The translations under genes were made by a program, and so were the position numbers. The notes beneath the pieces are model-generated. The model did no database searches. It worked only from the letters and a program-made list of their open reading frames with translations, and was not told the origin of the DNA. Shown in pieces: positions 24,383-50,713 of a DNA stretch of 64,000 nt. The stretch's first letter is position 1. Each line of letters begins with the position of its first letter. Source of the stretch: Spirochaetia bacterium (lineage in GTDB: Bacteria > Spirochaetota > Spirochaetia > SZUA-6 > Bin103); NCBI GenBank assembly GCA_965198005.1, contig CBDAOI010000002.1, positions 288,001-352,000 of the forward strand, given 5' to 3'.

Positions 24383-25047
24383 TCGCGGCCCGCCCGCGTG
24401 GGGCGCTGGTACTGGCGGGGCTGGCGGCGGGGCTGGCGCTGGCAGGCTGCGAGACGCGCGCACCCGAGCTGCGTGAGCTGCACTGGCAACTGGTCGACTT
24501 CCACGACCAATCGCTGGATGACCGGTACGAGGCCCTGAGTCTGTTCGCCCGGGTGAGCGACGCCGACGGTGCGGACGATCTCGATGAACTGTACCTGATC
24601 TTCGAGGCGGGTGAGCTGTATTGGCGCCTGACGGCCGACGACTGGATCCAGACCGACCGAAACGGCGCGGTCTGGATCGGCAGTACCACGCTGGCGATGC
24701 CGGGCCGGGAGCCGTTTCCTCCCGGAGAGTACCGCGTGCTGGTGGTGGACATCGGCGGCGAGCGGGCCGAGCTGCGGTTCGTGCTTCCCGCCCGGCGCAG
24801 CGCCACGCCGGCGCCCGAGGTCAGGGCTACCGACACCGGCTTCACGGTGCGCGGCGCGACCGACTACGAACTGTGGGTCCTGGCCGAGGGCAACCTGGTG
24901 GCGACGATCGACGCCACCGAACCGGTCGATCTCGTGCGCCGCCTCGACGGCCGCGACGAGACCCGCTATCAGGTGTACGTATACGGACACCTGCCCGCAA
25001 CGGAGCAGGGAGTCCTGGCCGGTCCATACGAATGGCGCCGGCCGTAG
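24379..25047 (+). CDS. Putative lipoprotein, function unknown
   Basis: Signal peptide with LAGC lipobox; coupled to hisC (ATGA overlap). Confidence 0.7.
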   Translation: MIAARPRGALVLAGLAAGLALAGCETRAPELRELHWQLVDFHDQSLDDRYEALSLFARVSDADGADDLDELYLIFEAGELYWRLTADDWIQTDRNGAVWIGSTTLAMPGREPFPPGEYRVLVVDIGGERAELRFVLPARRSATPAPEVRATDTGFTVRGATDYELWVLAEGNLVATIDATEPVDLVRRLDGRDETRYQVYVYGHLPATEQGVLAGPYEWRRP

Positions 25048-39758: not shown

Positions 39759-41054
39759 CTACCGGGCCAGCGCGGCGGCCGCGGCGTAGATCTCCGCGAA
39801 CAGCGCCTCCAGATCGTCCAGCGCTACGGTGGAGTACGCGACCCGCAGGTAGTCATCTCCCACCGAGATGGTGCCGATGCCGCGCCCGTGCAGCAACTCG
39901 AGGCGCAACGCCTCGGCCTTGCCTCCTACCACTCGCAGGGTGAGGAAGTACCCGGAGTTGAACGGCAGCGGTTGCAGCGACCCGTCCGGCGCCGCCCGGG
40001 CGGCGAGGAGCTCGCGCACCCGCCGGTAGCGGGCGGCGACCGCTTCCAGGTTGGCTGCCCGCTCGGCCTGGTAGGTGCCGGACCGCATGGAACGGAGAAT
40101 CAGGTTCTGGGCCAACGTGTTGGAACTGGAAACCGATGAGCGCACGGCTCCCATCACCTTCCGCTCCAGGGCCGCGAACTGCTCGTCCGTGACGCCGGGT
40201 GCCCCGAACGTCAGGAAGCCGACGCGAAATCCCCACACGTAGCTCTCCTTGGTCGCGCCGTCCACCTTGACCGCGAGGATCCGGCGATGCGCGTTGCTCA
40301 GCCGGGCGAACAGCGACTCCCGATAGCTCGCGGGGTCGTAGAACAACCCGAAGTACGCGTCGTCGCAGATCACGACCTGCCGGAGGCCGCGCCGAGCGTG
40401 GTGCAGCAACACCTCCAGCAGGCGCTCGACTTCCGCCTGAGCCGGGGTGTAGCCGGTGGGATTGTTGGGGAAGTTCAGCAGCAGCACCGCCTTGCCGCCG
40501 CCGGGCAGCCGCTCGAGCGCGGCGTCGAACGCCCCCACGTCGAGCTGCCGCGCAGCGTCGAAGAAGGGCACCGTCTCCAGCACCGCGCCCCGCCGCTCTT
40601 CCATTATGAGGCGGTAGTTGCCCCAGAACATGTCCGGCACCAGCACCCGGTCGCCGCGGTCCACCAGCAGATCGGCGGCCACGGCGATCCCGTGCGTCAG
40701 GCCGGCGGTCACCAGCGGCAGCGACACCGGGCCGGTGAGGCCGGGGTTCTTCTGTTTCATCTCCGCCAGCCAGCAGGTGCGCAACTCCGGAAGTCCCCCG
40801 GTCGGGGCGTAGGCGAAGATCTGGTCCGGCTCCAGCTCCGGCACCAGCCGCCGGATACTGTCCAGAAACAGCGGCGTCCGGCCGTCGGTGGCGATGCCCA
40901 CGGTAGCGTCGAACCGATGCGCGTGCTTGGCGGCCTCCGCGGTCTGCGCCACCACCCCGCGCGGGAAGTACAGGCGGCGCCCCAGGTCGGACAGCAGCGG
41001 CGCGATTTCAGTGTCGGCGAGGGTCTGGTTGAGCTGTGCGGCGAGTGGATTCAT
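39759..41054 (-). CDS. PLP-dependent aminotransferase class I/II
   Basis: NFPNNPTGYTP, DDAYFGL, DGATKE..WGFRVG. Confidence 0.9.
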   Translation of the reverse strand: MNPLAAQLNQTLADTEIAPLLSDLGRRLYFPRGVVAQTAEAAKHAHRFDATVGIATDGRTPLFLDSIRRLVPELEPDQIFAYAPTGGLPELRTCWLAEMKQKNPGLTGPVSLPLVTAGLTHGIAVAADLLVDRGDRVLVPDMFWGNYRLIMEERRGAVLETVPFFDAARQLDVGAFDAALERLPGGGKAVLLLNFPNNPTGYTPAQAEVERLLEVLLHHARRGLRQVVICDDAYFGLFYDPASYRESLFARLSNAHRRILAVKVDGATKESYVWGFRVGFLTFGAPGVTDEQFAALERKVMGAVRSSVSSSNTLAQNLILRSMRSGTYQAERAANLEAVAARYRRVRELLAARAAPDGSLQPLPFNSGYFLTLRVVGGKAEALRLELLHGRGIGTISVGDDYLRVAYSTVALDDLEALFAEIYAAAAALAR

Positions 41055-41098
41055 GGCGCGAGTCATCGCCCTACACTGTGCGCAGAGCGGCGCGGCCT

Positions 41099-41134
41099 TT
41101 GTCAACGCGGCTCCGGCAAGCTACATTTGCGTAA
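41099..41134 (+). promoter_or_regulatory. sigma70-type promoter of the activator, overlapped by a CTAC-N6-GTAA box
   Basis: TTGTCA(41099-41104)-17bp-TACATT(41122-41127); box CTACATTTGCGTAA at 41121-41134. Confidence 0.6.
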
Positions 41135-41139
41135 CCTGT

Positions 41140-42696
41140 ATGGCGTCTCCCCTGCCATCGGCCGACGTGCGGCGCGAGGTGAGCGAGCTGGCGATGCTGT
41201 TCGAGATCAGCCGCATTCTCGACTCCAGCCTCGATCTGCGCGACGTCGTGCATCCGATCCTCGAAACGCTCGGCCGCCACCTGGGCATCCGGCTGGGCGT
41301 GCTGAGCCTGGTAAACCGCGCCACCGAACGGATCTCGATCGAGGCCGCCTACGGTCTGTCGGAGAGCCAGCAGCGGCGCGGCCGGTACAAGATCGGCGAG
41401 GGCATCACCGGCGGCGTGGTGCAATCCGGCGCGCCCGCCATCGTACCGCGCATCGCGGACGAGCCCGGCATGGTGCACCGCACCCGCGCCGCCACCAGTC
41501 CGGAGCTGGCCGACCTCTCCTTCATCTGCGTGCCGATCAAGTCGGGCAACACCGTGATCGGCTCGCTGAGCACCGACAAGCTGTTCCCGGCGCACGTACC
41601 GTTCGACGAGGACGTACGGTTGCTTTCCATTATTGCGTCGATGATCTCGCAGGCGGTAAAGCTGCGTCAGTCGGCGCAGGAGGAGCGCCGGCGGCTGCTC
41701 GAGGAGAACGACCGGTTGCAGGAGCAGTTGAAGAACCGGTTTCGGCCGAAGAATCTGATCGGCAGCTCCGAGGCGATGAACAGCGCGTTCCGGCTCGTGG
41801 GACAGGTGTCACGGAGCGATGCCACGGTGCTGATCCGGGGCGAGACCGGCACCGGCAAGGATCTGGTGGCGCAGGCGATCCACTACAACAGCGCGCGCAC
41901 GGCGAAACCGTTCATCAAGGTGAACTGCGCCGCGCTGCCCGAGTCCGTGATCGAGAGCGAGCTGTTCGGCCATGAGCGCGGGGCGTTCACCGGCGCGATC
42001 GCCACCCGCAAGGGTCGGTTCGAGCTGGCCCACGGGGGAACGCTGTTCCTGGATGAGATCGGGGACCTGACCGCGGCGACCCAGGTCAGGCTGCTGCGGG
42101 TGCTGCAGGAGCGCGAGTTCGAGCGGGTCGGCGGTACCGCCACGCTGCGCAGTGACGTGCGCGTGCTCGCCGCCACCAACCGCAACCTGGAAGAGCTGAT
42201 CGAGCGCGGCGAGTTTCGCGCCGATCTGTATTACCGGCTGAACGTGTTTCCGATTCACATCCCGCCGCTGCGCGAGCGCAAGACCGACCTGCTGCTGCTC
42301 GCAGATCACTTCGTCGCGCGCTACGGGGCCGAGAATCACAAGCACGTCAAGCGGATCACCACGCCCGCGATCGACATGCTGATGAGCTACCACTGGCCCG
42401 GCAACGTGCGCGAGCTGGAGAACTGCATCGAGCGTGCCGTCCTGCTGAGCAACGACGAGGTGATCCACGGCCACCACCTGCCGCCCACGCTGCAGACCGC
42501 CGAGGCCAGCGGCACCACTCCGCGCGGCAGCCTGCGCGGCACCGTCGACGCCATCGAACGCGAGCTGATTCAGGACGCCCTGAAGTGGGGCCGGGGCAAC
42601 CTGGCGCGCGCCGCCCGCTCGCTCGAGATCAGCGAACGGATCATGGGACTGCGCGTACGCAAGTATCGGATCGATCCCGACACCTACAAGCGCTGA
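41140..42696 (+). CDS. sigma54-dependent enhancer-binding protein, GAF-AAA+-HTH (NifA family, AnfA/VnfA-like HTH)
   Basis: GAF (GEGITG, SFICVPI), GETGTGK, intact GAFTGA, WPGNVRELEN; HTH GNLARAARSLEISERIMGLRVRKY. Confidence 0.92.
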   Translation: MASPLPSADVRREVSELAMLFEISRILDSSLDLRDVVHPILETLGRHLGIRLGVLSLVNRATERISIEAAYGLSESQQRRGRYKIGEGITGGVVQSGAPAIVPRIADEPGMVHRTRAATSPELADLSFICVPIKSGNTVIGSLSTDKLFPAHVPFDEDVRLLSIIASMISQAVKLRQSAQEERRRLLEENDRLQEQLKNRFRPKNLIGSSEAMNSAFRLVGQVSRSDATVLIRGETGTGKDLVAQAIHYNSARTAKPFIKVNCAALPESVIESELFGHERGAFTGAIATRKGRFELAHGGTLFLDEIGDLTAATQVRLLRVLQEREFERVGGTATLRSDVRVLAATNRNLEELIERGEFRADLYYRLNVFPIHIPPLRERKTDLLLLADHFVARYGAENHKHVKRITTPAIDMLMSYHWPGNVRELENCIERAVLLSNDEVIHGHHLPPTLQTAEASGTTPRGSLRGTVDAIERELIQDALKWGRGNLARAARSLEISERIMGLRVRKYRIDPDTYKR

Positions 42697-42722
42697 CGGT
42701 GCGCCAACCGCAGCCAGAAACC

Positions 42723-42767
42723 CCACATTTGCGTAGCACGCGGCCTGAGTTCCTACGCTGAGGTAGG
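42723..42767. promoter_or_regulatory. Tandem upstream activator boxes for amtB-glnK
   Basis: CCAC-ATTTGC-GTAG (42723-42736) and CCTAC-GCTGAG-GTAGG (42752-42767), 30 bp apart. Confidence 0.7.
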
Positions 42768-42830
42768 CCCGCGGGCCGCGGCGGGCGCCGCTCGCCGCCC
42801 CTCCTGCCCGATCCTGATGCTCGGCTGCGT

Positions 42831-42847
42831 TTGGCACGCATCTTGCT
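42831..42847 (+). promoter_or_regulatory. sigma54 -24/-12 promoter of amtB-glnK
   Basis: TTGGCACGCATCTTGCT matches TGGCAC-N5-TTGC; RBS AAGGAGAGG before amtB. Confidence 0.9.
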
Positions 42848-42889
42848 TTGGTACGGGCAACCAACCTCATTCCAAGGAGAGGCTGAACG

Positions 42890-44227
42890 ATGCGAAGATT
42901 TCTCATTATCGCTGCGGCGCTGCTGGTATTCGGCGCCGTGCATGGATTCGCGGACGCCGATTCCAACGCCGTGGCCATCGATACGGTATGGACGATCATG
43001 GCCGCGGTGCTGGTATTTCTGATGCAGGCCGGCTTCGCGATGCTGGAGACCGGATTCACGCGCGCCAAGAACGCGACCAACATCATGATGAAGAATCTGC
43101 TGGACTTCTCGATCGGGACGCTCGCGTTCTGGGCGATCGGTTTCGGGATCATGTTCGGAGCCGACGCCGCGGGCCTGCTCGGGACCGACAAGTTCTTCCT
43201 GGGCGGGGCCGTGGTGGACGAGGCGTTCTCCGACTTCACGTTCTGGATCTTCCAGGTGATGTTCGCCGCCACTGCCGCCACCATCGTCTCGGGAGCGGTA
43301 GCGGAACGTACGCAGTTCAAGGCGTATCTGGTCTACTCGGTATTCGTCAGCGCGCTCATCTACCCGGTGGTCGGCCACTGGATCTGGGGCGGCGGCTGGC
43401 TCGGTTCGCTGGGCATGATCGACTTCGCCGGATCCACCGTAGTCCACTCCGTGGGCGGCTGGGCCGGTCTGGCGGGCGCGATCGTCCTGGGTGCGCGCGA
43501 AGGCAAGTACGTCCGCACCGGCAACGGCAGCAGCCAGGGCAGGCCGGTGGTAAACGCGATCCAGGGGCACAACATGCCGCTGGCCGCGCTCGGCGTGTTT
43601 CTCCTGTGGTTCGGGTGGTTCGGGTTCAACGCCGGCAGCACGGTGGCGGGCACCGACCTGTCGATCGCGGCAATCGCCGTAACCACCAACCTGGCGGCCG
43701 CGGCCGGCGTGGTGGGCGCGCTGATGATGGCCTGGATGATCTCCGGCAAGCCCGACCCGACGTTCGCGCTCAACGGCGCCATTGGCGGTCTGGTGGCGAT
43801 TACCGCGGGCTGCGCCAACCTGTCACCGGGCAGTGCGGTGGTGGTCGGCTTTCTCGGCGGCGTGCTGGTGGTGTTGTCGGTGCAATTCATCGACCGCGTG
43901 CTCCACGTCGACGATCCCGTGGGAGCGGTCTCCGCGCACGGCGTGGTCGGCGCCTGGGGCACGATTGCGGTGGGTCTGTTCGCGCAGGAGCAGTACGGCG
44001 GCACCAACGGTCTGTTCTTCGGCGGCGGCTTCGGCCAGCTCGGGATTCAGATCGTAGGCGTCCTGGCGGTATTCGCGTGGACCTTCGCTACCGCACTGAT
44101 TCTGTTCAAGTTGATCAAGGCCACCGTCGGTCTGCGCGTGACCCGCGAGGGGGAACTGCGTGGACTCGACATCGGCGAGCACGGCACGGAGGCGTACACC
44201 GACTTTCAGGTGTACACTACCCGTTAA
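42890..44227 (+). CDS. amtB: Ammonium transporter
   Basis: [57 protein letters not shown]. Confidence 0.97.
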
Positions 44228-44255
44228 CGCCGCAACCGGCAGACAGGAGGTCGGC

Positions 44256-44597
44256 ATGAAACTGATTATCGCCTACGTTCAGCCGCACAAGCTGAACGAC
44301 GTCAAGCAGGAGCTGTTCAAGGAGCAGGTGGGCAAGATGTCGGTCACCAATGCCTTGGGCTGCGGGCAGCAGATGGGCTACACCGAAACCTACCGGGGAG
44401 TCCAGATCGAGGTCAACCTGTTGAAGAAGGTTCGCCTCGAGATTGCGGTCAACGACGAATTCCTGGAACGTACGATCGATGCGATCGTGCGCGGCGCCCG
44501 CACCGGCGAGATCGGCGACGGCAAAATCTTCGTGACGGAGCTGAGCCAGTGTATCCGCATTCGCTCGGGCGAAGTGGGTGCCGTAGCAATTGGATAG
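44256..44597 (+). CDS. glnK: PII nitrogen regulatory protein (GlnK-type, Tyr51 replaced by Ile)
   Basis: [42 protein letters not shown]. Confidence 0.95.
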
Positions 44598-44646
44598 CGC
44601 CCCAAGACCGCCGCCCGGGGCGCCGCTCTTGGCCCATCCCGTCCGA

Positions 44647-44766
44647 TCACTAGGAGTCTGTCGCAATCCGACAGACTCCTAGTGAGACGGCCTGACCTTA
44701 TTGACCGGAGCGCGGTCAGGCCGTCAGGGGAGGGGGGCCGGCGTCCACCTGTGGGCGCCGGCCCCC
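44647..44766. repeat. Three consecutive hairpins between convergent glnK and glnE (probable bidirectional terminator region; first hairpin possibly an IS/MITE scar)
   Basis: Perfect 17-bp IR TCACTAGGAGTCTGTCG/CGACAGACTCCTAGTGA (44647-44685); 12-bp IR GACGGCCTGACC/GGTCAGGCCGTC (44686-44725); GC hairpin at about 44733-44766. Confidence 0.75.
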
Positions 44767-44778
44767 CGAACCGCTCGA

Positions 44779-47700
44779 TCAATCCGATCCTGCCACCCGG
44801 CAATAGGCGGCGTGCACCCGGGTCGTGACCTCCGCGACCCGTTGCTCGAACGCGGGCACGGTCGCGCCGGTACCCAGCAGGTGGCGCGCCAGGGTGGTCA
44901 GCGCCGTCCGGGAGGTGGGCAGCGCGTGTACCTGACGATCCTCCAGCACCTGCAGGAAATGTTCCAGCCGCCGCAGGAACAGGTAGTCGTCGCGCAGGTG
45001 CCCGGCGGTTGCGGTGTCGAGCACCGCGGCCCGCTGCAGACGCCCCAGAGCCTCCAGGGTGTTGCCGCACTGCAGGTGCGGAATCCGCGGCAGGTGCACC
45101 AGTTGCAACCCCTGCACCAGGAATTCGATCTCACGTAGACCACCGATCCCGGACTTCACGTCACGCCCCTGGCCGAGCCGGGCCTTATGGGCGAGGGCCA
45201 GCGCCCGCATCCGGCGGATGGAGCCGAACACCCGCGCGGCGCGGCTCGCGGGGTCGTCTCCGAAGCGCGCGAAGGCAGCCTGCGTCTGCTCCAGCAGCGC
45301 GTTGCCGAGGGCACGGTTGCCACCCACCGGGCGCATCCTCAGCAATGCCTGCACCTCCCAGTCGTTGGCCGGTCCGCCGTAGTAGGCGACCAGTGCGCGC
45401 AACGAATGGGCCAGCTCGCCGGAGCTGCCGTAGGGGCGCAGCCGCCAGTCCACCCGATACGCGGCGCTCTCCTCGGGATGGGAGGAGAGCACCTCACGCA
45501 AGCCGCGGGCGAGCGCGGAGACGGCCTGACTCAACTCCGCACCGGCCGCGGCGCCCAGGCCCCGGTCGTCGTACAGCGCGACCAGATCGATGTCCGAGCT
45601 GTAGTTGAGCTCCTCCGCCCCCAGCTTGCCCAGCGCCAGAATGCAGGTACGCTCGCCCAGCGCCGGCTGCTCCGGCTGCCGCGTCAGGGCGGTGAGCGCG
45701 GCGTCGACGAACGCCTCCGCGACGGTGGAGAGATCGGCCATGACGTCGGTCACCGGCGCCTCGAGGCAGAAGTCGCGGATGGCGATGCGCAGAATCTCGC
45801 GCCGGCGCAGGGCGCGCAGCCGCCGCAGCCAGGCAGTGCGGTCCGGCGCGCCGCCGGCCGCGGCCTCCAGCTCCAGCGCCACGTCCTGCAGCCGGCGGCG
45901 GCCGTGCAGCCGCTCCGGCTCCTCGGTAACCCAGTCGAACAGCTCGGGGCCGCGCACCAGGGCGTCGGCCAGAAACTGGCTGGTGGCGAAGATTCGCAGC
46001 AGCAGCTCCAGCCGCGTGGGTTGGCGCAACAAGGTCCGGAAGTGGCGCCCGGGATCGTCCAGAGCCGCGGCGAACCGTTCCCAGTTGTTGAGCGCGCGAT
46101 CCGGATCCGGTTGCAGGGCCAGGGTGTCGCCCGCCAGCACCGCCAGCCGCGCGAACTCCGTGCGATCCGGGGCACGGCGCGCCAGCCGGATGACGTTGCC
46201 CGCCGCCCGCTCCGGCTGCGCGAACCCGAGCCGGCGCAGAACGGTGGCCGGGGCGGCATCCGCGGCGGCGCGGGCGGTGTCCGCTGGCGGCAGGCTCAGC
46301 ACCAGGTCGGCGAGACCGGTGATCGTGTCGGAGCCGAGCGAGCCGCGCCCGAGGCGGGTGTCGATGAAGCGCCGCACCGCCGCGCGGCGGGTTTCCAGCT
46401 CCAGGCGGAGCTGCTGCGCCGGGGCCAGACCGTCCGCCTCGCGGTAGCCCATGCGGCGCGCCAGATGGCCGTACTCGGGAGCGTGCGCCGGCGGCAGGTA
46501 CAGGTCACGGGCCGAGCCGCGCAGCATGCGCAGGGCGTTGATCAGCAGGCGGAAAAACCCGTACGCGCCCTGGATCTGCTCCGCCTCCTCGGCCGCCAGC
46601 AGCCCGGCCTGCGCCAGCCCATCCAGCGCCTGATGGACGCTGGAGCTGCGCAGTTCCCGGTTGGTCTCGCCATAGCGCACCTGCAGCATCTGGACCGCGT
46701 ACTCCACGTCCACCAGCGTGCCGGGGCTGAACTTGGCGTTGAGCCTGGTGGCGGCGTCGTACTCGGCCACCTGCCGGCGGCGCATCCGGTGCACCTGTTC
46801 CAGGGCGACCGCGCCGGCCGCGTACACGAATTGGTCGCGCAGCCGCTCCAGCCGCGCGCCCAGCGCGGGGTCGCCGGCCACGGCGCGCAGCCGCAGCAGC
46901 GCCAGCCGCTCGTACGCCAGCGCGGCGCCGCCGGGGCCGTAGTAACGGGTGAAGCTTTCCAGACTTACGGCGCGGGGTCCGGCGGCGCCGTACGGGCGCA
47001 GGCGCAGGTCCACCTCGAAGATGCCGGCCCGGCGGGCGCTGATGCGCGCGGTGGTGGCGCGCACCAGTTGCTCGTAGTACTCGGCGTTGCCGACCCGGCG
47101 CGGGCCGGTGGTGCGGCCCTGGTCGCTGTACACGAACATCAGCTCGACGTCGGAGGCGTAGCCGAGCGCGCGTCCCCCCATCTTGCCCAGCCCCATCACG
47201 GCCAGCCGCGTATCGATGCCGCCGACCGTTTGCGGTACACCGAACTGCGGCCGCAGGGCCGCCGCCGCCAGCTCCAGCGCACCGGCCAGCACGCAGTCGG
47301 CAAGCTCGGTCAGGCGGCCGGCGAGCGTCCGCACGCCCCAACCCGGCCCGAGAATGTGCTCCAGATCGATCAGAAACGCCTCGCGATCCTTGAACCGGTT
47401 CAGCGTCGCCACCTTCTCGTCGGCCGTGGCCGCCGCGTCCACCGCCGCCCGCAGGCGCGCCGCGACCGTGGCCGGATCGGTGAACCGGTGGGTCGCCTGC
47501 GGTTCCAGCAGCGGCAGCAGGGTCTCGAACTGGCTGCGGACGAAGTCCTCCCACAGGTAGTCGCTGCTGCCCAGCAGCACCGCCAGCTCGCGCATGATGC
47601 GCGGGTCGGCCAGCAGATCCGGCAGCCGGCCCGCCTCCGGCAACTCGAGCATCCGCTCGGTGAGCTGTTCGAAGCGCATCAAGGCGGCGTACGGGTCGGG

Positions 47701-48630
47701 GGCGACGCCGACGAAGTAGGCGAACTGCTTGGTGAGCAGCACCGAGAGCTTGATCTGGTTCAGCAGCGTAGCGTCGCGGATCGGCGCGCCGGAGCGATCG
47801 ACCACGTCCACGGTATCCTCGACGCGGCCGGCGACGGTGCGGATCCGCAGCCGTTGAATCGCGACCCCGCGCAGCGCGAGCGCGGCGCTGAAGCTGTAGA
47901 GGAACAGCGGCGTGTCCTGGGAGACGATGCGCATGCGGGTCACCGCCCCGCCGGCGGTCACCGCCGCGGGGTTGCCGATCGTGATTTCAACCGGGTACAG
48001 AGTCGGCGGCGCCGACCAGGTGCGGCGAATCCGCTCCGCCACCAGTTCGCTGACCCGCCGGCGGGCCGCGTCCCGGGCCCCGCGCTCCAGATCGGAAGCG
48101 ACCGCCAGCAGCCGTTGCTCCAGTTGTTGCCGCCACTCGGCCGTGCTCAGCACCCGCGCCTCCGGCGTCTCGCGCCGCCCGTGGAAACAGTCGATCAGCA
48201 TGCGGCGCCCTGCGCCCGGCCGCGGCCCCACGACACGGCGCCGCGCACCCGGACGCCGGCGCGCGCGCATCCCGCTCGGTGCGGTCTCGGTGGCGGGCGC
48301 CGGCCCGTAGGTGTGGGCGGTCCCGCGGTCGATGGCGAACCCGGCCGCCGCCAGCACCCCCGTAATCAGCGAGAAGGCGCCGGGGTAGTCGTAGCCGACA
48401 ATCGTGCAACCGAGCGTCCCGGCTTCGCCGCCGGTCTCGGCGACGGCAACCGCCAGCGGCCGGCGCTCATGCAGCCGGCTCAGCCCGCGGATGTGTCCGG
48501 CCACCTCCGGCAGCGAAAACTCGTCGAAGTAATCGTCGCCGAGACGTGCCAGATGCCGATCGATGAAGTACTCGTCGACTCCGGCCAACTCGTTGCGGAG
48601 TTGCTCCCTGTCTCGCGCCGACGCAGTCAC
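44779..48630 (-). CDS. glnE: GlnE-like glutamine synthetase adenylyltransferase/adenylyl-removing enzyme with N-terminal GlnD-like ACT domains
   Basis: Two NTase motifs GKMGGRALGYASDVE and GKLGAEELNYSSDID, each followed by VDxRLRPYG; N-terminal DYPGAFSLITGVL and DTPLFLYSFS ACT-like motifs; start approximate. Confidence 0.88.
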   Translation of the reverse strand: MTASARDREQLRNELAGVDEYFIDRHLARLGDDYFDEFSLPEVAGHIRGLSRLHERRPLAVAVAETGGEAGTLGCTIVGYDYPGAFSLITGVLAAAGFAIDRGTAHTYGPAPATETAPSGMRARRRPGARRRVVGPRPGAGRRMLIDCFHGRRETPEARVLSTAEWRQQLEQRLLAVASDLERGARDAARRRVSELVAERIRRTWSAPPTLYPVEITIGNPAAVTAGGAVTRMRIVSQDTPLFLYSFSAALALRGVAIQRLRIRTVAGRVEDTVDVVDRSGAPIRDATLLNQIKLSVLLTKQFAYFVGVAPDPYAALMRFEQLTERMLELPEAGRLPDLLADPRIMRELAVLLGSSDYLWEDFVRSQFETLLPLLEPQATHRFTDPATVAARLRAAVDAAATADEKVATLNRFKDREAFLIDLEHILGPGWGVRTLAGRLTELADCVLAGALELAAAALRPQFGVPQTVGGIDTRLAVMGLGKMGGRALGYASDVELMFVYSDQGRTTGPRRVGNAEYYEQLVRATTARISARRAGIFEVDLRLRPYGAAGPRAVSLESFTRYYGPGGAALAYERLALLRLRAVAGDPALGARLERLRDQFVYAAGAVALEQVHRMRRRQVAEYDAATRLNAKFSPGTLVDVEYAVQMLQVRYGETNRELRSSSVHQALDGLAQAGLLAAEEAEQIQGAYGFFRLLINALRMLRGSARDLYLPPAHAPEYGHLARRMGYREADGLAPAQQLRLELETRRAAVRRFIDTRLGRGSLGSDTITGLADLVLSLPPADTARAAADAAPATVLRRLGFAQPERAAGNVIRLARRAPDRTEFARLAVLAGDTLALQPDPDRALNNWERFAAALDDPGRHFRTLLRQPTRLELLLRIFATSQFLADALVRGPELFDWVTEEPERLHGRRRLQDVALELEAAAGGAPDRTAWLRRLRALRRREILRIAIRDFCLEAPVTDVMADLSTVAEAFVDAALTALTRQPEQPALGERTCILALGKLGAEELNYSSDIDLVALYDDRGLGAAAGAELSQAVSALARGLREVLSSHPEESAAYRVDWRLRPYGSSGELAHSLRALVAYYGGPANDWEVQALLRMRPVGGNRALGNALLEQTQAAFARFGDDPASRAARVFGSIRRMRALALAHKARLGQGRDVKSGIGGLREIEFLVQGLQLVHLPRIPHLQCGNTLEALGRLQRAAVLDTATAGHLRDDYLFLRRLEHFLQVLEDRQVHALPTSRTALTTLARHLLGTGATVPAFEQRVAEVTTRVHAAYCRVAGSD

Positions 48631-48683
48631 CGGTCCCGATGCTACCACCACATCGGGGCCGGTGTATCGCCAGGGCGCGCGCG

Positions 48684-50105
48684 TCAGATGTCGTAGTACA
48701 TCGCGAATTCCCACGGATGCGGCCGCAGGTCCAACGCGGTTACCTCGTTCTCCATCTTGTAATCGATCCAGGTCTCCAGCACGTCCTCGGTGAACACGTC
48801 GCCCTTGAGCAGGAACTCGTGGTCGTCGCGCAGCGCCTCGAGCGCCTCGCGCAGCGAGCCGGGCGTGGTGTTGACCTTGGCCAACTCCTCGGGCGGCAGG
48901 TCGTAGAGGTCGCGGTCGAGTGGGTCGCCGGGGTGGATCTTGTTGGTGATGCCGTCGATCGCGGCCATCAGCATCGCCGCGAACCCGAGATAGGGGTTGG
49001 AGGAGGCATCCGGGCAGCGGAACTCGATGCGCTTCGCCTTGGGGGAGGTGGAGTACATGGGCAGCCGTATCGCCGCGCTGCGGTTGCGGCGCGAGTAGGC
49101 CAGATTCACCGGCGCCTCGAAGCCCGGCACCAGCCGCTTGAAGCTGTTGGTGGTCGGGTTGGTGAAGGCGATGATCGCCGCCGCGTGGGCCAGCAGGCCG
49201 CCGATGGCGTACAACGCCATCTCCGACATCCCGGCGTAGCCGTCGCCGGCGAACAGGTTGCTGCCGTCCTTCCACAGCGAGATGTGGGTGTGCATGCCGC
49301 TGCCGTTGTCCCCGAACAACGGCTTGGGCATGAAGGTGGCGGTCTTGTTGTAGCGCCGGGCGGTGTTCTTGACCACGTACTTGTACTTGAGCATGTTGTC
49401 GGCCATGGTCACCAGGGGCGCGAACCGCATGTCGATCTCACCCTGGCCGGCGGTGGCCACCTCGTGGTGCTGCGCCTCGATCAGGACCCCGATGCTCTCC
49501 AGCGTCAGCATCATCTCGCTGCGCAGATCCTGCAGGCTGTCGGTGGGCGGTACCGGGAAGTAGCCCTCCTTGTAGCGCGGCTTGTAGCCGAGGTTGGGGT
49601 TCTCGTCGCGGCCCGAGTTCCAGCGCCCCTCTTCCGAGTCGATGTGGTAGTAGCCTTCGTGCTCGTTCTGGTCGAAGCGCACGTCGTCGAACACGAAGAA
49701 CTCCGCCTCCGGCCCGTAGTAGGCCACGTCCGCCAAGCCCGACGAGCGCAGGTAGCCCTCCGCCTTGCGCGCGATGTTGCGCGGATCGCGGGTATAGTCC
49801 TCGCCGGTCACCGGATCGGAGATGTTGCAGATCAGGACGATCGTCTTGCGCGCCAGAAACGGATCGATGAAGCCGGTCTCGGGCACCGGCTTGACCAGCA
49901 TGTCCGATTCGTTGATCGACTGCCAGCCGCGGATGCTGGAGCCGTCGAAGCCCAGGCCGGCGGCGAAGTCGTCCTCCGACAGCTCGCGCGCCGGGATCGA
50001 GAAGTGCTGCCACAAGCCGGGAAAGTCCATGAAGCGCAGGTCAACGACCTCCACTCCCTCGTCGGCGATCAGCTTGAGCACGTCGCCAGGGGTTTTCAGT
50101 GTCAC
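48684..50105 (-). CDS. glnA: Glutamine synthetase type I-beta
   Basis: [36 protein letters not shown], adenylylation loop [19 protein letters not shown] before GTG. Confidence 0.98.
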
Positions 50106-50146
50106 GGGTTCCTCCTCATGAATAGCTATCGTGTCACGGTTGCGAA

Positions 50147-50163
50147 AGCAAGAACCGTGCCAT
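50147..50163 (-). promoter_or_regulatory. sigma54 -24/-12 promoter of glnA-glnE
   Basis: Minus strand ATGGCACGGTTCTTGCT matches TGGCAC-N5-TTGC. Confidence 0.9.
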
Positions 50164-50205
50164 ATCCAAAGCTGGCGCTCCGGCGGCAGCAACGGCGGCA
50201 GAGTA

Positions 50206-50250
50206 CCACATTTTCGTAGGCTCGTGCCGATCCATCCTACCTGACGGTCT
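50206..50250. promoter_or_regulatory. Tandem upstream activator boxes for glnA
   Basis: CCAC-ATTTTC-GTAG (50206-50219) and degenerate CTAC-CTGACG-GTCT (50237-50250), 31 bp apart. Confidence 0.6.
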
Positions 50251-50287
50251 GTTGCTCATGCGCCCCGGCACGTGTTATACCGTGGGC

Positions 50288-50713
50288 GTGGCGAACCTAT
50301 CAAGGACCCTTGCGTTAATCAAAGCCGATGCCTTCGGACGCAACCTGACCGGCAAGATCATCGACGCGGCGCTCGACGCCGGACTGGCGATCGTGGCCCT
50401 CAAGAGCGTCAACCTCAACCGCGCCCAGTCCGAGACGTTCTACGCGGTGCACCGCGCCCGCCCCTTTTTCGCCGACCTGGTGACCTTCATGACCTCCGGC
50501 CCCACCGTGGCCCTGGTGCTCGAGGGCCCGGACGCGGTTGCCACTTGGCGTCGCGCCATGGGCGCCACCGACCCGGCCGAGGCGGACGCCGCCACGATCC
50601 GCCGCCGGTTCGGCGAATCGATCGAGCGCAACTGCTGCCACGGCTCCGACTCCGACGCCAACGCCGCCTTCGAGATCGGCTGCTTCTTCAGCGGCGAGGA
50701 GCTGCTGCGCTGA
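50288..50713 (+). CDS. ndk: Nucleoside diphosphate kinase
   Basis: RTLALIKAD, FYAVH..RPFF, MTSGP, MGATDP, NCCHGSDS. Confidence 0.96.
   Translation: MANLSRTLALIKADAFGRNLTGKIIDAALDAGLAIVALKSVNLNRAQSETFYAVHRARPFFADLVTFMTSGPTVALVLEGPDAVATWRRAMGATDPAEADAATIRRRFGESIERNCCHGSDSDANAAFEIGCFFSGEELLR

Follow-up and report, generated by a model that had tools for sequence, protein, structure and literature searches.

In enterobacteria, the sigma-54 activator of glnA, of amtB/glnK and of the nitrogen-scavenging transporters is NtrC (NR-I), which binds paired sites located about three helical turns apart and represses its own promoter via a site over the sigma-70 promoter. For the activators of alternative nitrogenases, two TAC-N6-GTA sites have been reported in the case of AnfA from Rhodobacter capsulatus and GTAC-N6-GTAC in the case of VnfA from Azotobacter vinelandii (PMC7294313), and a chromatin immunoprecipitation sequencing (ChIP-seq) study of VnfA1 gave the motif GT(T/A)C-N6-GTAC (PMC9542535). 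Here we describe the analysis of a DNA stretch of 64,000 nucleotides (nt) from a Spirochaetia bacterium (G000:C2:288001-352000, hereafter the window; host genome of 4.89 Mb, 66% G+C, 90.4% complete), in which paired dyad boxes lie upstream of the sigma-54 promoters of the ammonium transporter gene amtB and the glutamine synthetase gene glnA, beside the gene for an activator with GAF, AAA+ and helix-turn-helix (HTH) domains.

One-component activators connected with nitrogen have been described in other bacteria. DVU1949 of Desulfovibrio vulgaris Hildenborough is a one-component sigma-54 activator with a predicted nitrogen-assimilation regulon (DVU1231-1233, DVU1258, DVU3392, DVU1823-1821 and others) and predicted self-regulation (Kazakov et al. 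2015, PMC4641369); we liken it to the window activator by its published description, not by motif or sequence. In Leptospira interrogans, a sigma-54 activator with GAF domains, EbpA, is reported to bind upstream of amtB, whose expression depends on it, as does growth at low nitrogen (PMC12655853). Compared likewise by description, EbpA differs in being FhlA-like with two GAF domains. In a search of the literature, which covered papers but not their supplements, we found no report of the operator of the present family, its kinship to AnfA or its role in lineages without nitrogenase; for the motif, or for NifA-type control of assimilation genes in non-diazotrophs, the only pertinent publications that came up were the AnfA paper, the Desulfovibrio regulome and the review on EbpA.

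The locus shares features with these systems and departs from them in others. As in AnfA from R. capsulatus and AnfA and VnfA from A. vinelandii, the window activator has the GAF-AAA+-HTH_8 architecture, and, as described for AnfA/VnfA, two TAC-N6-GTA-type dyads stand before a sigma-54 promoter directly downstream of the activator gene (PMC7294313, PMC9542535). Unlike AnfA and VnfA, the activator has no N-terminal cysteine motif, its predicted targets are ammonium, glutamine and urea genes (nitrate genes in relatives), and the dyad is flanked by C/G (cCTAC...GTAGg) instead of G/C (GTAC). The physiological role and logic that we propose for it are those of enterobacterial NtrC, with a GAF sensor in place of a phosphorylated receiver and with a different binding site. 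Our conclusion, to which we give a probability of about 85% on the sequence comparisons described below, is that the boxes are enhancer sites (upstream activating sequences, UAS) of the GAF-AAA+-HTH activator, and that this protein is a general nitrogen-assimilation regulator.

Paired boxes at three sigma-54 promoters

The original prediction, made from the letters of the window, had described four boxes, in pairs, and two sigma-54 promoters, and all of these were found in the sequence (Table 1). The box starts are 30 bp apart at amtB and 31 bp apart at glnA. The proximal box of amtB is a perfect CTAC/GTAG dyad and the second-highest site genome-wide by the weight matrix described below. The distal box of glnA, in which the CCTACC half-site is strong and the other half weak, had been called degenerate, a description that its score hardly supports (14.5, near the 15.0 of its partner). 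A fifth box, at 41121, had been missed. The boxes had also been called operators; enhancer is the better word for all except this fifth one, which lies on the activator's own promoter. Exact TGGCAC-N5-TTGC occurs in the window only twice, before amtB and before glnA, while sites with at most one mismatch are as frequent as chance would have them (6 vs 5.37 expected).

The loose pattern CYAC-N6-GTAG gave 11 matches in the window against 1.25 expected. Because seven of these fall away from the loci, and are unpaired, the loose pattern by itself is weak evidence; its enrichment was not taken as proof and was replaced by a matrix and pair analysis. The core ACATTT[GT]CGTA occurs six times in the genome: three times at this locus, twice on contig C4 as an inverted pair 31 bp apart upstream of urtA, and once (C3:195039) inside an AT-rich type I restriction S-subunit gene, which was rejected as a candidate.

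The weight matrix was symmetrised and built from 48 distinct sites of relatives, the own genome being excluded. At the 220 sigma-54-like sites of the genome (at most one mismatch), pairs were sought 29-32 bp apart in the upstream region. Only three sites stood out, those of urtA (pair score 32.0), amtB (31.6) and glnA (29.5); the fourth best score was 0.9. A scan blind to promoters, with spacings from 15 to 59 bp, returned four pairs genome-wide, and three of them were again amtB, glnA and urtA at 30/31 bp. The urtA pair lies outside the window, on contig C4, where its boxes precede a third exact sigma-54 promoter, TGGCACGCCGTTTGC, by 60 and 91 bp. This promoter drives urtA, the gene for the urea ABC-transporter binding protein (TIGR03407, 582.9 bits).

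The fourth pair of the blind scan (G000:C2:352134-352193, 134-193 bp past the window end) consists of boxes with scores of 7.1 and 17.3 located 40 bp apart in an apparently non-coding stretch, where the scan found no sigma-54 promoter. Other high-scoring single boxes (C4:1464919, C3:88619/83023, C2:740044, C4:1358172, C3:1204400 and others) were set aside as chance matches, because they are unpaired, lie within long open frames and have no sigma-54 promoter. Identical 20-mers recurred in the matrix scan at G000:C3:83023 and 88619, at C4:279072, 1007813 and 1030707, and at C1:83076 and 89238, which indicates repeated, probably mobile, elements in this genome.

Sites of the NifA and NtrC types were not seen at the amtB and glnA promoters. 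TGT-N10-ACA had a single match in the window, at 24974, distant from the amtB and glnA promoters, and no NtrC-like site (TGCACC-N5-GGTGCA-like, up to three mismatches) was present in either promoter region.

Conservation of the boxes in the order

For comparison, 41 genomes of the same order, the own genome included, were used. Orthologues of the activator were found in 40 of them (63-87% identity), and in most relatives the gene lies directly upstream of the amtB (or glnA) promoter. A sigma-54 promoter was located within 300 bp downstream of the activator stop codon in 26 of the 30 loci fetched, followed by amtB or, in two families, by glnA. The only relative without an activator at E 1e-100 is G026 (89% complete, 660 contigs), in which glnA lacks the boxes as well as a sigma-54 promoter.

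In the 25 orthologous non-own regions downstream of the activator gene, every 3-mer dyad with a gap of 0-12 was counted in an unbiased manner. TAC-N6-GTA was the top dyad, present in 18 of the 25 regions vs 0.45 in shuffled sequences, where the maximum for any dyad was 8. The next dyads, ACC-N4-GGT, CTA-N8-TAG and CCT-N10-AGG, are nested with it, and the consensus can thus be written as cCTAC(c)-N4-(g)GTAGg, i.e., cCTAC-N6-GTAGg. Box pairs 30-31 bp apart (core, at most one mismatch) were found in 22 of these regions. At glnA, 26 of the 29 non-own loci had pair scores of at least 20. The shared paired element that had been noticed in the window is, therefore, conserved in the orthologous promoters of relatives.

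In these regions, the box centres are about 101/71 bp from TGGCAC in genus g2 and in the own genome, and 92/62 bp in genus g1; part of genus g2 has an extra, weaker third box at 41 bp. The centres at glnA in genus g1 are about 81/50 bp. The urtA gene is present in 11 of the 41 genomes, and the pair and promoter were found at all ten non-own loci with pair scores of at least 20, the centres being 90-92/60-61 bp in all nine loci of genus g1. Position, spacing and dyad are kept where the identity of the activator is only 63-69%, and the sequence between the boxes is not. The proximal box centres form a ladder at about 50, 61, 71 and 84 bp with a best period of 10.5-11 bp (R = 0.79, n = 47 loci, vs a null 99th percentile of 0.39; the values were entered by hand from earlier outputs, and the genomes are related and hence non-independent). 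This phased ladder fits a requirement for one helix face.

The regulon in relatives

A strict composite pattern, TGCCA-N20-50-TAC-N6-GTA-N18-20-TAC-N6-GTA, was run over the 41 genomes. It gave 15 matches in 12 genomes, and the reversed control pattern gave none. In addition to glnA and amtB, the matches precede a second amt gene (TIGR00836, 401.3 bits) and, in three genomes, a gene for a NarK-family nitrate/nitrite transporter (TIGR00886, 285.7 bits with a shortened query; cut-off 311.7). All targets found are nitrogen-uptake or nitrogen-assimilation genes. The regulon as read from the promoters would consist here of amtB-glnK, glnA and urtA, to which relatives add the NarK-type transporter and the second amt. 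From these members, the activator would play the part that NtrC has in enterobacteria.

Probable kinship of the activator with AnfA

The window activator has the features of a sigma-54 enhancer-binding protein: the AAA+ domain was detected by PF00158 (Sigma54_activat, E 1.4e-72), the Walker A motif GETGTGK and the GAFTGA loop can be read in the translation, and its putative targets have -24/-12 promoters with box pairs 50-102 bp upstream. It scored 535.3 bits with the NCBIfam model of NifA, TIGR01817 (cut-off 528.85), in a match of residues 16-447 to model positions 3-438 of 534 that leaves the HTH uncovered. NifA is, therefore, the name that automatic annotation would give, and close orthologues are named 'Nif-specific regulatory protein' by JGI. 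With the NtrC model TIGR01818, the score was 354-356 bits against a cut-off of 558.6, the match beginning at model position 116; the N-terminus has a GAF domain and no receiver. A search with the HTH alone (residues 460-518) returned no named AnfA or VnfA; out of 41 candidates it gave only 17 close orthologues, of which three were named 'Nif-specific regulatory protein'.

Presumed AnfA proteins for comparison were chosen by their place beside anfG, not by annotation. The anfG gene (PF03139) was present in 6 of the 130 genomes of one order, and was not found in five genomes that hold NifA-like loci. In four of the six anfG regions, anfG has a full-length activator gene about 3 kb upstream of it. 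In the fifth (L164), the anfA-like gene matches in two pieces, which suggests a frameshift, and no activator was seen in the anfG region of L160. The four anfG-linked activators are 49.5-50.7% identical to the window protein over residues 14-518, as compared with 36-46% for annotated plasmid NifA proteins. The recognition helices are SERIMGLRVRKY in the window protein, TRRILGLRMEKH in the anfG-linked proteins and TPRQVAYRIQTM in Pantoea NifA, and the window and anfG-linked proteins have the pattern x(E/R)RI(M/L)GLRxxK in common. Within the 27-residue HTH core, the window protein has 12 residues in common with the anfG-linked proteins and 8 with Pantoea NifA; its SERIMGLR is unlike the TPRQ(V/I)AYR of NifA.

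Tree reconstruction gave the same grouping. In a quick maximum-likelihood tree of 49 proteins, rooted on five response-regulator types, the window family forms a 13-row clade (Shimodaira-Hasegawa-like approximate likelihood ratio test, SH-aLRT, 98) within a 23-row clade (97) that includes the anfG-linked proteins. The 23-row clade also holds cysteine-bearing proteins from metagenome-assembled genomes (MAGs) labelled Bacteroidales, Plebeiibacterium and Acidobacteriales, and two proteins from MAGs labelled Deltaproteobacteria and Desulfovibrio (L065). Annotated NifA proteins fall into a separate 11-row clade together with DVUA0143. The latter, encoded on plasmid pDV of D. vulgaris, has an N-terminal domain said to be AnfA/VnfA-like (Kazakov et al., PMC4641369), and was rejected as a stand-in for AnfA owing to its NifA-type helix, TPRQMGYR, and its position in the NifA clade.

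Cysteines at the N-terminus of the GAF domain are reported to be conserved in AnfA and VnfA (PMC9542535), and the anfG-linked proteins have the motif ..C(F/E)(T/S)GEC.. (..CFTGEC.. or ..CESGEC..). The N-terminus of the window protein, MASPLPSADVRREVSELAMLFEIS, has no Cys. The window activator is, therefore, best read as an AnfA-related, cysteine-less protein that groups with the anfG-linked clade and not with the NifA clade. This agrees with the AnfA-like HTH and with the description of AnfA/VnfA sites in the original prediction, the latter being correct (PMC7294313, PMC9542535). That an alternative-nitrogenase-type activator serves here for ammonia assimilation held only in part: the general role fits the regulon and the lack of any nitrogenase or NtrC in our searches, and the protein is not an AnfA or VnfA proper, since it has no N-terminal cysteine motif and no link to anf or vnf genes. 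NifA in function was rejected as well, because the model was barely passed, the HTH differs, no nitrogenase was found, no TGT-N10-ACA lies near the promoters and the clade is separate. NtrC was rejected on the missing receiver, the score below the family cut-off and the lack of NtrC-like sites in the promoters.

In the anfG genomes, boxes of the form GTAC-N6-GTA(C/T) were observed upstream of the anfA-like gene (L161 4124-4172, L164 3773-3905), followed in L164 by TGGCCCGAAATTTGC. In view of the published TAC-N6-GTA and GTAC-N6-GTAC sites of AnfA and VnfA, helix type and dyad type go together, which supports the assignment of the boxes by homology. Five sigma-54 activator genes were found in the host genome; four have a generic NtrC/AtoC- or RtcR-type HTH, or none, and the xERIMGLR helix is present only in the window activator.

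Nitrogenase, NtrC and P-II signalling

In the 90.4% complete genome, the best nifH match was 31.7 bits against a cut-off of 394, and PF00148, the nitrogenase component-1 family, had no match. Of the 41 genomes in the order, two had a PF00148 match over the cut-off, and neither of these belongs to the window's family (24 genomes). No NtrC of the genome passed the family cut-off either (best 424.6 bits vs 558.6, for G000:C1:297350-298525), nor did any GlnD, for which the best match, 31.2 bits, lies within the glnE-like gene.

The P-II protein encoded downstream of amtB has Ile at what we take, from our alignment to the T-loop, to be the position of the uridylylated Tyr51 of Escherichia coli GlnB. 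With this residue, and with no GlnD over the cut-off, signalling would depend on the binding of effectors (2-oxoglutarate, ATP/ADP), so that P-II signalling may work without uridylylation. By analogy to NifA and AnfA, the GAF domain (2-oxoglutarate), the co-transcribed P-II, or both, would probably sense the nitrogen status. Control by P-II through the GAF domain has been proposed for AnfA of Rhodopseudomonas palustris (PMC12093980).

The promoter of the activator gene

A promoter scan of 40900-42950 found one sigma-70-like site (0.2 expected), located upstream of the activator gene, and the fifth box overlaps its -10 hexamer (Table 1). The TTGTCAACGC motif plus the box is conserved upstream of the activator gene in genus g1, where the box is at the same place in all ten loci with scores of 6.8-16.2. 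In loci of four other families (L022, L023, L026, L027), box pairs or strong single boxes precede the activator gene. The position of the box over the -10 element suggests that the activator represses its own gene, and a single box at this place would give negative autoregulation. The distance from the -10 hexamer to the activator ATG is 13 nt (41127-41140) and no Shine-Dalgarno sequence is visible. The leader must then be very short or absent, and the mRNA may be leaderless.

Features of the locus and neighbouring genes

Table 1. Promoters, putative enhancer boxes and genes at the locus (positions in the window; distances of box centres are upstream of TGGCAC; scores are from the weight matrix)
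Feature	Positions	Strand	Details
Sigma-70-like promoter of activator gene	41099..41127	+	TTGTCA, 17 nt spacer, TACATT
Single box CTACATTTGCGTAA	41121..41134	+	overlaps -10 hexamer; score 10.8; 6 bp before activator ATG
GAF-AAA+-HTH activator gene	41140..42696	+	518 amino acids (aa); GAF, sigma-54 AAA+, AAA lid, HTH_8 (Pfam)
amtB distal box CCACATTTGCGTAG	42723..42736	+	centre 102 bp; score 12.2
amtB proximal box CTACGCTGAGGTAG	42753..42766	+	centre 72 bp; score 19.4
Sigma-54 promoter of amtB-glnK TGGCACGCATCTTGC	42832-42846	+	exact TGGCAC-N5-TTGC
amtB, ammonium transporter	42890..44227	+	Pfam PF00909, E 1.2e-127; ATG at 42890
P-II gene (glnK-like)	44256..44597	+	113 aa; downstream of amtB
glnE-like open frame	44779-49275	-	listed at 1498 aa
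glnA, glutamine synthetase type I	48684..50105	-	GTG start at 50105, AGGAGG before GTG
Sigma-54 promoter of glnA TGGCACGGTTCTTGC	50148-50162	-	exact TGGCAC-N5-TTGC
glnA proximal box CCACATTTTCGTAG	50206..50219	+	centre 50 bp; score 15.0
glnA distal box CTACCTGACGGTCT	50237..50250	+	centre 81 bp; score 14.5

The glnE-like frame shares about 590 bp with the 3' end of glnA, read in a different frame, and its Pfam matches (GlnE twice, GlnD_UR_UTase twice) were all placed within residues 1090-1490. On the other side of glnA, the distal box abuts the upstream region of a divergent ndk gene, whose likely start is a GTG near 50287 (MANLSRTLALIKAD...). Between this box and ndk, a TTGCTC...TATACC pair can be seen by eye (50237-50300); the automatic scan gave no promoter there. 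The activator might influence ndk, too.

Box pairs outside the order

Pairs directly downstream of a homologous activator gene were also found in a MAG labelled Spirochaetaceae (L041, activator 67% identical), in one of the Blastocatellia (L044, 57%) and in one of the Vicinamibacteria (L050, 54%), the last followed by amtB and P-II. L041 and L042 nest within the window's order in the tree. A Desulfobacteraceae MAG has TTACATTTTTGTTT and CAACATTTTTGTCA at a spacing of 30 bp; its amtB is preceded by a sigma-54 promoter, and the pair lies about 105 bp upstream of that promoter. The invariant part across the pairs outside the order is AC-N8-GT. At amtB loci in genomes outside the order, pairs were present only in L181 and L185, and in four of the five genomes there the GlnA query had no match at E 1e-60.

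Discussion

The regulation that we propose is as follows. One HTH dimer would sit on each TAC-N6-GTA dyad (cCTAC-N6-GTAGg); a pair of boxes separated by three helical turns, and kept on a fixed face relative to -24/-12, would nucleate the active AAA+ oligomer, and the oligomer would reach the sigma-54 holoenzyme by short-range looping. As a mechanism this is textbook: an activator of sigma-54 promoters that works through paired enhancers with a three-turn spacing and represses its own gene.

Several observations weigh against this reading. The assignment of the boxes to the activator draws on adjacency, HTH homology and co-occurrence, from which we infer the binding. The co-occurrence has one informative negative, G026, which is a fragmented genome, and the relatedness of the genomes makes them non-independent, so that the counts overstate the statistical weight. 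Three glnA loci failed the pair test (L141, and L147 and L148 with a single strong box each), and the pass of L150 glnA is nominal (20.3, with a second box of 3.3, at 212-243 bp from the promoter). In L022 and L023, the sigma-54 promoter lies 14-23 bp after the activator stop with no box between, and the 30-bp box pairs sit upstream of the activator gene instead; the enhancer may act there over the full 1.5-kb length of that gene or serve the activator gene itself. The glnA promoters of genus g2 have TGGCAC-N5-(C/T)TGT, where GT takes the place of the canonical GC at -12, and the activator gene in the genus g2 loci has no box before it. Finally, strong pairs were absent from the anfG loci when these were scanned with the matrix: beside the anfG-linked activators, the anfH promoters have GTAC-N6-GAAC-like repeats by eye, with poor matrix scores. 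Since the anfH boxes differ, the specificities within the clade would be similar and not identical. In genus g2, the non-canonical -12 element is conserved (glnA loci L131-L139, L142 and L143), and strong box pairs still lie upstream.

Dyads of the CTAx-N6-xTAG type are used by unrelated regulators, for example at the AmtR box of corynebacteria, and the boxes could in principle be bound by a nitrogen regulator of another, non-sigma-54 family, while the activator works elsewhere or from solution. That its binding to the boxes is deduced from sequence, and that one box overlaps a sigma-70-like -10 in the manner of a repressor site, would suit such a regulator. However, no competing conserved dyad is present in the promoter regions, fixed pairing at 30-31 bp, in helical phase with -24/-12, is what enhancer sites typically show, TAC-N6-GTA is the reported site of relatives of the activator that share its helix, and boxes, activator and sigma-54 promoter are jointly missing in G026; we regard this explanation as improbable. 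Still less probable is the use of the boxes by another sigma-54 activator of the genome, with other targets for the GAF protein. The candidate would be the response-regulator type G000:C1:297350-298525, the top match of the NtrC model (under its cut-off), but its HTH, GISRKTLLRKLREYGL, belongs to the generic NtrC/AtoC type and is unlike the AnfA-type helix, no NtrC-like site is present at amtB or glnA, and its gene is unlinked to all three targets, whereas throughout the order the GAF activator gene adjoins the box pairs, and it has a box of its own.

Chance could also account for the likeness of the boxes, or they could be a functionless remnant of repeated or mobile sequence, as the seven loose matches elsewhere in the window and the high-scoring single boxes inside coding regions might suggest. 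Against this, paired boxes are found at only three promoters in the genome, all of nitrogen-uptake or nitrogen-assimilation genes, their position, spacing and dyad outlast the inter-box sequence at 63-69% activator identity, and the reversed control had no match; chance is effectively refuted. Enhancer sites of the GAF-AAA+-HTH activator are, therefore, the explanation that we prefer.

The mechanism is not new, as a one-component activator of nitrogen assimilation has already been predicted in Desulfovibrio (PMC4641369). Should DVU1949 prove to be an orthologue that uses this operator, the present finding would extend that predicted system to another lineage. The finding also corrects an annotation trap, namely the 'nif-specific NifA' names in genomes where no nitrogenase was found, and it provides a testable cis code by which a mostly uncultured lineage that has been little studied would control its nitrogen genes: cCTAC-N6-GTAGg in 30-31 bp pairs, phased to -24/-12. 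With this code, which probably reaches beyond the lineage, sequence alone suffices to read the regulon.

The original prediction implied recruitment from an alternative-nitrogenase activator, and the direction of evolution is not settled by the tree. Tentatively, and at less than even odds, we propose that the cysteine-less GAF clade is an NtrBC-independent master regulator of nitrogen in several phyla, acting through xAC-N8-GTx 30-bp pairs, with AnfA and VnfA as cysteine-gaining offshoots. Its members would be those of the window's order, of the MAGs labelled Spirochaetaceae, Blastocatellia and Vicinamibacteria, and probably of the Desulfobacterota. If this is true, the recruitment would be reversed: the general regulator would be ancestral and the nitrogenase-specific one derived, by gain of a cysteine (metal/redox) sensor with the DNA specificity kept. 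The kinship also ties the poorly defined DNA specificity of AnfA and VnfA to a much larger family with dozens of natural site/helix variants, and it bears on the origin of the alternative-nitrogenase regulators and, through these variants, on how this HTH reads TAC-N6-GTA.

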